Shown in pieces: positions 39,001 through 42,000 of a stretch of DNA of 64,000 bases. The DNA is taken from NCBI RefSeq assembly GCF_057098645.1, contig NZ_CM169472.1. The stretch is one strand, 5' to 3'. Each line of letters opens with the position of its first letter. Position 1 is the stretch's first letter. The position numbers were made by a program.

Positions 39001-42000
39001 ACTGCTCTGTTTTGGCTATATCAACCGCACGGCCTGTACCGTGGCAATCTCTGCATCTTGCGCCCGGCGTAGCGGCACTACGGCAATAATCCGCATAAGC
39101 GAATGTTGCGAGCACTTGCAGTACCTTTGCCTTAGTATTTCCTTCAAGCTTTGCCACGCCACGGTATTTCCCCGATACCTTGTGTGCAAATTGCATCAGA
39201 TAGTTGATAGCCTTTTGTTTGTCGTTCTGGCTGAGTTCGTGCTTACCACAGAATACAGCCATTCCGAATCCGGCTTGTGATTGCGCCATCCCCATAGCAG
39301 CCATCACATCAGTACCGGAAAGAGAGTCAGAAGCCGTGGCCCGTGGTGAGTCGCTCATCATCGGGCTTTTTGGCGAATGAAATTTAGCTACGCTTTCGAG
39401 TCTCATGCGCCTTCTCCCTGTACCTGAATCAATGTGAGGTTTCCGCAGAACACTGCGCCAGTATCGATATACATCTGGTTGGCAAATTTGAGTGGTTTCA
39501 CTGCTGGCGTATGACCAAAGATGAACGTGTCCGCGCCTTTGATTTCTTTCACGATCCCGTCTTGTGAGTTGCTGATTCGTTCGCGGTTCCAGATTACCTG
39601 CTGATGATCAACTGGCTTTCCAAACTCGTATTTATCACAAGGATAATCGGCGTGGCAGATGACATATTTTTTTCCTTTACTCACCAGTTCGATGATTAAC
39701 GGAAGTTCATCTGCTTTATGGGCAAGAGCTTTAGCCAGAATTTCTTTGTCGTAATCGAGATTAAAGAACCAGCCACCGCCATTAAGCAGCCAGTGATTGA
39801 CGTTTCCACGCTCTGATAAGCCATCAATCATCATTTGCTCATGGTTTCCACGTACAGCTCTGAACCAGGGGAATGTGATTAATTCCAGGCATTCTACGTT
39901 CTCTGTACCGCGATCAACCAAATCGCCCACCGAGATAAGCAGGTCTTTTTTGGTGTCGAATCCTATCGTCTCCAGTTTTTTCATCAGGTTCGTGTAGCAT
40001 CCGTGCAGATCGCCAACTACCCAAATATTTCGGTATTTGCTGCCATCAATTCTTTCGTAGATATTCATGCAACCTCACTTCTGCTGTTTCGCAGTTTTTT
40101 AAGTTTCTGTTGATACTCCGCCTTGATGGCCCTGCACTCTTCGACAGTCCAGCGATAGCGGTTATGGTTTGATTCGATTTCCTCTACTGCTTCCTGCCCG
40201 ATGCGGCTAATCAGTTCGACGCGATACGGAACGAGATTTCCGCTTTTGTGCTGGTTGCACACCACGCATTGCTTGTGAATATTGCGTTCATCAAATCGGA
40301 GTTGAGGTGCCGCAGCAGTTGTCCGGTAATGTCCGGCATCCCACTGAGCAGACGTGAGCGTTCCGCACGAGATACATGGTAAGTCGCGGTCTCTTTCTCT
40401 GATGAAGGCGTTTACGGCTTGTTGGGCTTGTTTAATCCAGTAACTGCGGGGCTTTAAGGCGAGTTTTTGAATCTTAAGTTTATCTTTCTGTTTCTGCTCC
40501 TCTCGTCGTCGTTTCTTCTCTGCTGCTTTTTCCGCTTTTTCGCGTTCTTTACTTCGTCGTTCGAGTGCTATCTTGGTTCCACAAATCTCATTACACAAAT
40601 ATTGATTTTGATATTTTGGTATAAACCATTCATTGCAACATTTACATTTCCTTCGATAGATTCGCATAAGTGCTCCTTTCGTTGCCGGAAAAATCACCGT
40701 AATACTTATCTCGGGCTTCTTCAGCAACTAGTACCGCTAACTCCAGATCATCAAAGCATCCGAAGTGTTTACTCTTTCCATGGAATCCTAGCCTAACATT
40801 CCATTTTTTCTGTCGTTTGTGCCAAGTAACCCCTCTGCAACCTGATTTGCTATTCTTTCGGATCCTTATATTTCTTGAATTTTCTATTGGCAGGCATTCT
40901 CTTAAATTTTCTGGCCTATTGTCGGTCCTAATTCCATTAACGTGGTCAATTTGACCAGCAGGCCAACGATTATGAGTTATGTAAAAAACTAAGACGTGAG
41001 TTTTATATCTACGCCCATCTATCATGATCATTGAATAACCGTTGGAATCAAAAGTTCCAGCAACACTATTTAATGCTATCCTTCCCTGAGTGGGAACTTT
41101 CCATCTAAATACCCCGGTAGATTTATCGAAACTTAGTAACTCAAATATCCTTTTAACAGTTAAATCTTCTCTTTTACGGTTACATCGTCTTCGCGCTGGT
41201 TTAGCCATCGCCTTCTTCCTCCGTAATGGTTTTCTGAATTTGGCCACCTGAACAGAGCTCACCAAAGCTATGGATGTCGGTATTTCCACAATACCAAGAT
41301 GGCGAAAATAACTGCATGATAAGCCTCAGGGAAAAGGGAAGACACTACCCCCGATAATTCAGAAACAAATCGAAATACATGAACTAAAGAAAAAATCACA
41401 ACAAATAGAAACAGAAATAGAAATAGAAATAGAAATATTAAAACAGACCACCACATTCCTGATGTCATACTCACTAAACAATTTTTCGACAACATGGTTG
41501 CTCATAGCATGTTATCGTGTAGACACCCTCTGCTACGTATTCGGTGTTCAGTGCAATATCTACAAATACTGGAAAAATCTAAAATCGAGGCAAGTTTTTA
41601 GTGATAACTATAGTTAGACTATATTGACGACCTGATGTGCTGTATGTAATAATTAACAAAAAATATTTTCCATGGGATTTTTTATTTTAATGAAATGCAA
41701 AATATTTTTATCAATAGTTAGTATTATGGAAAACCATTAATTCAGGAGGAAACTTGATTCCAAATTCAACTTCAAATAAAGGTTATGTATGCATTGACAT
41801 GCAGTGTTCGTCAACCTCTGAACCAACAGCTTCTACCTCCAGCAACCGGAGTATTAAATTAGCCGCTTCCACAAATGTATATCCGATAACAAGAAACGAC
41901 TCCGAGCTCACTCTGAACGATTTTCTTGATAATAGCTCTTCTACGTCATCATTGGACTACATTAATGAATTGGGTTCTCAACTGACGTTAAATGATTTTC

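Follow-up and report, generated by a model that had tools for sequence, protein, structure and literature searches.

We analyzed a 64,000-nucleotide stretch of contig NZ_CM169472.1 (NCBI RefSeq assembly GCF_057098645.1), hereafter the window, in which a prophage carries an HNH endonuclease gene lodged in the 5' end of ninG (rap), a recombination gene of lambdoid phages. A sequence-only reading had placed this gene at 40642-41216 and had described it as a mobile endonuclease gene inserted in the first ninG codons, with ninG re-establishing a start downstream. The location was right. The open reading frame (ORF) occupies 40642-41208, from an ATG at 41208-41206 to a stop codon at 40644-40642, and the proposed end at 41216 is a few bases before the start codon, in the gap that separates it from a GGAGG Shine-Dalgarno sequence. 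This ORF and the cassette and ninG features described below are on the minus strand. It encodes 188 amino acids (aa) plus stop, beginning with MAKPARRRCNRKRED (also given as MAKPARRRCNRKREDLTVKRIFELL), and RefSeq annotates the product as an HNH endonuclease, WP_001108084.1, in its 188-aa form. The gene downstream is named 'recombination protein NinG'. A longer ORF of 215 aa starting from GTG 41289 was rejected, since its extension falls in sequence that depends on the context and is different in copies preceded by ninF, and RefSeq calls the 188-aa form.

The HNH-AP2 endonuclease and the captured ninG start

HNH and AP2 domains had been proposed for this ORF from the sequence alone, and profile searches bore them out. 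The Pfam profile HNH_3 (PF13392) matched aa 68-107 with E=9.1e-11 (40888-41007), and the AP2 profile (PF00847) matched aa 123-171 with E=9.6e-4 (40696-40842). Among 16 aligned homologues, AP2 was matched in eight at E<=1e-3, with a best E of 2.8e-7. In this 16-sequence family alignment, D88, H89, N101, and N110 were invariant, meaning that the catalytic His and the metal-binding Asn are kept; D88-H89 and N101 lie inside the HNH_3 match and N110, the third invariant residue, just outside it. The protein was assigned to phrog_99 'HNH endonuclease' (E=1.4e-71) in PHROGs, and no family was matched in an NCBIfam profile search.

An AlphaFold (AF2) model was built from the family alignment, with a mean predicted local distance difference test (pLDDT) score of 83.6. 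Its best structural match in the PDB was I-HmuI (1U3E), with a Foldseek probability of 1.00 over 98 columns but an E of only 8e-3. This supports a beta-beta-alpha-metal fold like that of the solved homing endonuclease; the likeness covers the N-terminal and HNH part of the model, at a sequence identity of 17%. The AP2 part matched plant AP2/ERF folds, namely those of AtERF1, TEM1, and WRI1 (1GCC, at a root-mean-square deviation of 1.3 A over 51 columns; 7ET5; 7WQ5). A PDB sequence search with the endonuclease gave only a weak AP2 match to WRI1.

The protein collection searched contains a tight cluster at 99% identity to the endonuclease; its 464 members come from E. coli, E. albertii, and Salmonella. 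One homologue at 89% identity is a truncated copy of 104 aa, no homologue was found between 89% and 44%, and the remaining relatives are at most 44% identical. The closest of these distant relatives (44%) was found on a JGI metagenome contig (nt 1033-1927), directly after and overlapping a T7-type endonuclease I gene. This T7-like contig is another case of an HNH_3 gene beside a junction-resolving nuclease gene; the setting is uninformative on the origin of the gene in ninG.

The distant family members start about five residues ahead of the conserved motif LTxxxLRxLLxYDPxTGVFRWK and stop soon after HGxFA. The window protein has 15 additional N-terminal residues, nine of them from ninG, and about 12 additional C-terminal residues, which read through the ribosome-binding site and start of the downstream ninG. 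Because the distant family members lack both extensions, these are products of the two junctions. In the model, residues 1-11 and 181-188 had pLDDT values below 50 and are disordered.

The N-terminal extension comes from the start of ninG. MAKPARRRC had been taken for the N-terminus of lambda NinG, and this was correct: lambda NinG (J02459 42429-43043) translates as MMAKPARRRCKNDECREWF, starting with (M)MAKPARRRC, and the captured start codon, codons 1-9, and two further bases (41180-41208) are identical to lambda ninG at 29 of 29 nt. Together with the preceding G, the identity runs through ATGGCTAAACCAGCGCGAAGACGATGTAA (41209-41180), and it is well beyond chance. The MAKPARRRC prefix is missing from the family homologues of the endonuclease. 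A further ~16 bases upstream, comprising the 3' end of ninF and the ninG Shine-Dalgarno sequence, are near-identical to lambda. This left homologous flank (41209-41225), which holds the last bases of ninF and the translation-initiation region of ninG, is nearly identical to the ninF-ninG junction of lambda/HK type, and homology to lambdoid phages free of the endonuclease gene starts at about 41221-41225. The GGAGG at 41222-41218, originally the Shine-Dalgarno sequence of ninG, is now the ribosome-binding site of the endonuclease ORF.

The endonuclease frame is thus fused in frame to the ninG ribosome-binding site, start codon, and first nine codons, which indicates that it is translated from those signals. 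Its first internal Met is at residue 59; with none before it, the endonuclease depends on the captured ninG start. In copies preceded by ninF, the ninF stop codon overlaps the endonuclease ATG (ATGGCTAA) just as it overlaps the ninG start in lambda, which indicates that the endonuclease inherited the translational arrangement of ninF and ninG.

The 596-bp cassette and the chimeric ninG

Between the two homologous flanks lies a foreign cassette of 596 bp (40584-41179), which comprises the endonuclease body, the ribosome-binding site of the downstream ninG, and a replacement ninG 5' end. Its exact limits were drawn from the alignment to lambda. The left junction is located after ...GATGTAA. At the right junction, which starts at TGTGGAACCAAG, lambda identity resumes at TGTGGAACCAAGATAGC (40583) and runs through the rest of ninG; the cassette rejoins the resident ninG at TGTGGAACC. 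The whole cassette has a GC content of 37% (endonuclease body, 39%; new ninG 5' end, 27%), against 49% for both the ninG body and lambda ninG. This low GC content shows that the cassette is compositionally foreign.

Alignment against the lambda nin region, which had been named as a check on the insertion, gave matching flanks with 596 bp in the window standing in place of 64 bp of lambda-type ninG (codons 10-31, AAACGATGAATG...CTCCAGAG). The event is a replacement and no plain insertion. The idea of a mobile endonuclease gene in the first codons of ninG therefore held for the position and for the ninG-derived prefix, but that of a simple insertion did not. No terminal inverted repeats or target-site duplications were found around the cassette. 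No sigma-70-like promoter was found on the minus strand inside it, where the number of candidate sites was below that of shuffled sequence.

The downstream gene, ninG', starts within the 3' end of the endonuclease ORF. Its AAGGAG Shine-Dalgarno sequence, as read from the sequence, is at 40678-40673, its ATG lies five nt further on at 40667, and the complete chimeric ORF of 200 aa plus stop ends at 40065 (40065-40667). The endonuclease ORF ends 26 nt inside it, as had been noted, with an overlap at 40642-40667. The chimeric protein matched phrog_171 NinG/Rap, a family of junction-specific endonucleases, at aa 5-199 (E=5e-116) and is 89% identical to lambda NinG overall. Its first 28 codons (40584-40667) are foreign and diverged, with homology to NinG N-termini of the CX2C type, and the remainder (40065-40583) is the lambda-homologous body. 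The claim that ninG re-established its start was thus right as to a separate ATG and AAGGAG ribosome-binding site, but the start, the ribosome-binding site, and the first 28 codons are foreign and not ninG's own.

The replacement 5' end aligns codon for codon with NinG N-termini; its CX2C knuckle is two residues shorter, and the CX3C is intact. The N-terminal Cys cluster (C8, C11, C25, C29) aligned with those of lambda, SE22, and Pm34 NinG, with the pattern CX2C...CX3C in the chimeric protein and CX4C...CX3C in lambda. NinG of Salmonella phage SE22 (MAKVPRRKCKICNEWFHPAF) and that of Proteus phage Pm34 (MQKLRRRRCKICREWFHPKYSN) have such a CX2C knuckle naturally. The zinc-binding cysteines are kept in the replacement 5' end.

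At the DNA level, the replacement 5' end is identical to the lambda-type sequence in 54 of 95 columns (~57%) and to the 933W-type in 55 of 89. The longest run in common with lambda is GAATGGTTT, and no run exceeds 9 nt. Judged by these comparisons, the replacement is a foreign homologue from an unsampled AT-rich lineage rather than an improvised start. Thus at least three sharply distinct ninG 5' alleles occur: lambda CX4C, 933W/SE22 CX2C, and the cassette type. The 933W/SE22 allele, found in phage EDL933-Stx/933W and Salmonella phage SE22 (MAKVPRRKCKICNEWF), is GC-rich with a CX2C knuckle, and its first 20 nt are the same as in lambda ninG. Three sharply distinct alleles across ~30 codons of an otherwise conserved gene are unusual. 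Two variants of ninG' were also seen. At codon 24 (40597), the window reads YLCNEIC and most IMG/VR copies read YWCNEIC, the Trp matching WWC in lambda NinG. On metagenome contig PPYF01105303.1, the endonuclease is intact and ninG' has a 283-bp internal deletion from just after codon 25.

Distribution, contexts, and diversity of the cassette

The whole cassette was found in 536 of 5,426 complete E. coli genomes (~10%), nearly always at >=99% identity. Another 474 E. coli genomes gave matches, which were to the flanks only in the sampled rows. Genomes that are otherwise homologous are therefore polymorphic for the presence of the cassette, always at the same site, and its junctions were identical in every copy examined. 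Among phage records, only SH2026Stx1 and AU6Stx1 carry it.

When the diverged ninG 5' end was sought alone, it was found in 537 E. coli genomes, compared to 536 with the full cassette, and the sampled rows of this 537-genome match set were all annotated 'NinG | HNH endonuclease'. A codon-degenerate search of IMG/VR for the ninG 5' motif of the cassette gave 52 loci with identical motif DNA, and all 52 had the endonuclease. A looser degenerate search (NEWFIPKY) of metagenomes gave six more cassette copies, six of six with the endonuclease, and one chance match; the same search of 100,044 GTDB species-representative genomes gave no match. In Salmonella prophages, eight of eight places showed ninF, then the HNH gene (188 aa), and then ninG' (200 aa). 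A ninG N-terminus of the cassette type without the HNH gene, the finding that would have spoken against a lodged element, was not found in E. coli genomes, phage records, IMG/VR, GTDB representatives, metagenomes, or the protein collection. The endonuclease and the replacement ninG 5' end were never found apart and travel as one unit.

The Salmonella P22-like prophages that bear the cassette also hold further free-standing HNH_3 genes. A 172-aa NUMOD4+HNH_3 gene lies between the antiterminator and lysis genes in four loci (about 5940-6990), and one prophage has a 163-aa HNH_3+AP2 gene in the same place (6076-6567). A 195-aa HNH_3+AP2 gene was found upstream of ninB in one Salmonella prophage (1567-2154).

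The IMG/VR copies fell into at least 14 upstream and four downstream context clusters, spanning E. coli lambdoid, Stx1 (Shiga toxin 1), and Salmonella P22-like prophages. Some copies have ninF upstream of the cassette; the others, among them those of the window and the Stx1 phages, have an AT-rich stretch with an oppositely oriented 590-aa gene. Over at least 14 upstream contexts and two genera, the cassette remained 98.6-100% identical. In the cassette-bearing loci, the nucleotide diversity was 0.40% in the endonuclease body and 0.23% in the new ninG 5' end, and rose to 2.4%, 1.2%, and 5.3% in nt 1-100, 101-300, and 301-519 of the ninG body; the adjacent ninG body was thus 5-10 times more variable than the cassette. 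Compared with the window, the Salmonella copies were 98.6-99.4% identical in the cassette, 90-97% in the first 300 nt of the ninG body, and 79-89% in its last 219 nt, and their upstream and downstream sequences were unrelated. Common polymorphisms of the ninG body segregated in alleles with and without the endonuclease gene from 9 and 33 bp off the right junction. The low diversity of the cassette and the high diversity of its flanks indicate that the cassette is younger than its surroundings and has recombined into many ninG backgrounds, with exchange points near its edges. As far as sequence comparison goes, this pattern is compatible with nuclease-stimulated gene conversion, and ordinary recombination of the nin region fits it too.

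The endonuclease ORF was intact in all in-register copies (53 of 54, and 55 in a larger set), with 10 synonymous and 12 non-synonymous variants among the 55 copies; these counts suggest some constraint on the protein. One variant is N101S, at the invariant catalytic Asn. The 64-bp ninG stretch that the cassette replaces was nearly invariant among the 121 loci listed that are free of the endonuclease gene, which were picked by an exact 27-mer adjoining this stretch.

Proposed homing and its alternatives

Since the endonuclease has its own stop codon and ninG' has its own ribosome-binding site and ATG, the element is free-standing. We consider the cassette to be a free-standing homing endonuclease gene (HEG) of the I-HmuI-like HNH_3 family with a C-terminal AP2 domain, residing in the 5' end of lambdoid ninG (rap), with a probability of roughly 0.7. 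We are nearly as confident of its class, that of elements which spread by intronless homing, with cleavage presumed. Its specific target may be the replaced ninG stretch, as position would suggest, and here the chances are about even.

By intronless homing, a HEG-free ninG would be nicked or cut in or near the conserved 64-bp stretch during lytic growth or co-induction, and recombinational repair from a cassette-bearing phage would copy the cassette in. The diverged ninG 5' end would make the carrier allele uncleavable while NinG stays whole and functional. The founding invasion would have needed an illegitimate left junction after ...GATGTAA, and later spread could have proceeded through the homologous flanks.

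A number of observations weigh against this interpretation. The AP2 match of the window protein taken alone is marginal (E about 1e-3), and the variant counts of the endonuclease are too low to test firmly for selection. The candidate cleavage target is a guess from position, and cleavage and homing by this protein are themselves inferred. A donor lineage was not found by phage tblastn, a 40-aa protein search, or searches of IMG/VR, GTDB representatives, and metagenomes. Many carriers are clonal Shiga-toxin-producing E. coli (STEC; O157, O111, O26, O103), so that the figure of 536 genomes is inflated, and general recombination of the mosaic nin region could yield the same distribution. The window copy belongs to a prophage that an insertion sequence has severed from its early region. 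In EDL933, the cassette copy lies in a truncated prophage with an IS30 fragment upstream, and the same strain has a 933W prophage whose ninG keeps a different, HEG-free 5' end, unconverted. In such defective prophages the cassette is probably silent.

Some of these observations would also fit a cassette that is a passive mosaic module, in which the endonuclease is a relic, inactive or never expressed, and whose spread was due only to clonal growth of the bacterial hosts and to ordinary homologous recombination among lambdoid and P22-like phages. The nin region is a known mosaic hotspot, a few STEC clones dominate the carriers, both the window and EDL933 copies sit in truncated prophages, and a HEG-free 933W-type ninG coexists with the cassette in EDL933; the N101S substitution in one copy and the 283-bp ninG' deletion in one metagenome copy point in the same direction. 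Against a passive module stand an ORF that stays intact in every in-register copy, with 10 synonymous and 12 non-synonymous variants, and a cassette whose diversity, over two genera and 14 or more contexts, is 5-10 times below that of the adjacent ninG body. In addition, the exchange boundaries hug the cassette edges, as nuclease-stimulated exchange predicts (PMC10448857). We consider a passive module unlikely. A domesticated weapon or regulator that serves the phage, either by cutting competing lambdoid phages or prophages or through DNA binding by AP2, would agree with translation from ninG's own initiation region within a delayed-early operon and with some sign of purifying selection, and HEGs that act in phage-phage competition are documented elsewhere (marker exclusion, PMC2988022). 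Nothing points beyond the HEG-like architecture and distribution, and a role of this kind, which is largely compatible with homing, seems very improbable as a separate explanation.

The two remaining alternatives retain almost no probability. Many HNH_3 endonucleases, e.g. I-HmuI, are encoded by introns (PMC5714182), and this one lies inside a coding region, so that a group I intron or intein spliced out of ninG had to be considered; an intron structure around the insert had also been raised in the sequence-only reading. A cmscan of 39800-41900 with all 4,227 Rfam families at E<=1 gave no match, group I introns included, and the endonuclease has a stop codon of its own. Splicing is also unneeded, as ninG' is equipped with a ribosome-binding site, an ATG, and a full-length homologous N-terminus. 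Loss is common in the HEG life cycle, and the HNH-ninG' arrangement might on that ground be ancestral, with lambda-type ninG arising by deletion of the endonuclease. However, the 64 bp of lambda are not in the cassette and are ~57% identical to the replacement, so no deletion can give lambda-type ninG. The foreign GC of the cassette (27-39% vs 49%) also speaks against this order of events, and its very low diversity argues against antiquity.

A stronger form of the homing interpretation can be proposed. Synthetic cleave-and-rescue (ClvR) gene drives follow the same logic, in that a nuclease against the wild-type allele is coupled to a target copy recoded so as not to be cleaved; by contrast, the cassette is natural, its 'rescue' is limited to the 5' end of a non-essential gene, and its targeting is presumed. 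The cassette might be an active, natural cleave-and-rescue drive of temperate phages, in which a nuclease translated from its victim's start cuts the conserved zinc-finger-coding stretch of a HEG-free ninG upon co-infection or co-induction and the linked foreign 5' end rescues the gene. We regard this as a tentative proposal and rather doubtful. If it were true, it would explain the three sharply distinct ninG 5' alleles and the mosaic boundary exactly at the ninG 5' end in Stx and P22-like phages.

Neighboring genes and relation to known mobile endonucleases

Directly upstream of the cassette in the window, beyond a spacer at 41226-41753, lies the 590-aa ORF on the opposite strand (41754-43526 (+)), which is AT-rich (35% GC). 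It had no Pfam or NCBIfam match and a sole match to phrog_9230 (unknown function). Strain 2013C-4991 and the Stx1 phages SH2026Stx1 and AU6Stx1 have this gene at the same place. A sigma-70-like promoter (TTGACG-18-AATAAT, 41624-41653) is directed into it. It looks like a moron in place of ninF, with a boundary 17 bp from the endonuclease ATG. The AT-rich spacer contains three tandem copies of a 12-nt unit, AAATAGAAA(C/T)A(G/T), at 41403-41438.

The window also contains two copies of a 1,313-bp insertion sequence (32917-34229 and 43886-45198), mutually 97.5% identical, with ORFs of 108 aa and 296 aa each; it looks like an IS3-family element. As the second copy lies just beyond the 590-aa gene, the window prophage is without its early region. 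A 1,296-aa ORF (45193-49083, minus strand) with many AIDA repeats and a pertactin domain, and no autotransporter beta-barrel, ends at the edge of the insertion sequence and looks like an AIDA-like adhesin gene truncated by it. On the other side of the cassette, ninH is absent, and ninG' is followed directly by a gene for a 221-aa Ser/Thr phosphatase (39403-40068; junction at 40065-40068). In lambda, a 68-aa ninH lies between ninG and the phosphatase gene; for phages 434 and phi458, too, the records show NinG and the phosphatase alone here.

HNH+AP2 proteins are a recognized HEG family (group 2 in PMC5714182; also Magnani 2004, PMC520932, to the extent that it is cited in PMC10448857), and nuclease genes have been reported at boundaries of exchange between phages (PMC10448857). 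Like the HNH-AP2 HEGs that PMC10448857 cites from Magnani (PMC520932), the IPA-HNH HEGs of Vibrio phage ICP1 (PMC10448857), and those of Xanthomonas phages Xp10/OP1/Xop411 (PMC2248197), the cassette endonuclease has its HNH domain before a C-terminal AP2 domain, falls within 150-200 aa, and is encoded where related phages have an exchange boundary. Unlike in those cases, the host gene is ninG and the phage group is different, and its identity to the sampled relatives is <=44%. I-HmuI, the HNH nicking endonuclease of Bacillus phage SPO1 (1U3E), belongs to the same His-Me finger group 2 (PMC5714182), but it is encoded by an intron and has helix-turn-helix and NUMOD-type DNA-binding modules instead of AP2.

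The free-standing HEGs SegB, SegF, SegG, and MobE of T4-like phages spread by intronless homing (PMC2988022, PMC2790892, PMC2330249). The cassette shares with them an endonuclease gene that no intron or intein encloses, a fixed site that is occupied in some related phages and empty in others, a carrier flank that differs from the HEG-free allele, and recombination through homologous flanks. In contrast to the T4 elements, its host is a temperate lambdoid or P22-like phage and its cleavage and homing are putative; its endonuclease is fused to the start codon of the target gene, with no start of its own, and it carries a complete replacement 5' end. HEGs that split genes are also known, namely mobE in Aeh1 nrdA, mobA in T4 gene 39/60, and seg43(25) in gene 43 (PMC2988022). 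As in these, a free-standing gene for an HNH- or GIY-type endonuclease lies within a coding region and the host gene probably stays functional. The split host polypeptides of those genes reassemble, whereas the cassette splits off nothing functional: nine ninG codons stay behind as a tag on the endonuclease, and a foreign N-terminal module makes NinG a single polypeptide again.

No published description of the arrangement in ninG was found. Both gene annotations in RefSeq, the HNH-AP2 HEGs, free-standing HEGs beside diverged targets, and gene-splitting HEGs are already known. What is distinctive is the temperate lambdoid or P22-like host, the in-frame capture of a start codon, and the restoration of the host protein as a single polypeptide; the architecture is uncommon but unsurprising.

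Much is known about the homing endonucleases of lytic T4-like phages. Those of the temperate lambdoid and P22-like phages, from which the mosaic genomes of Shiga-toxin prophages are built, have received far less study. About one in ten complete E. coli genomes, and several Salmonella serovars, carry the cassette, which the databases label only as 'HNH endonuclease' followed by 'NinG'. It offers no new principle; mobile genes of this kind are known, and the cassette is a widespread and fairly ordinary one. Being compact and amenable to genetic work in lambda, with a target gene that is not essential, it may serve the study of whether nuclease-driven gene conversion shapes the boundaries of exchange among prophages, how an endonuclease gene can take over the start signals of its host gene, and how a carrier is protected by a diverged target copy linked to the nuclease.

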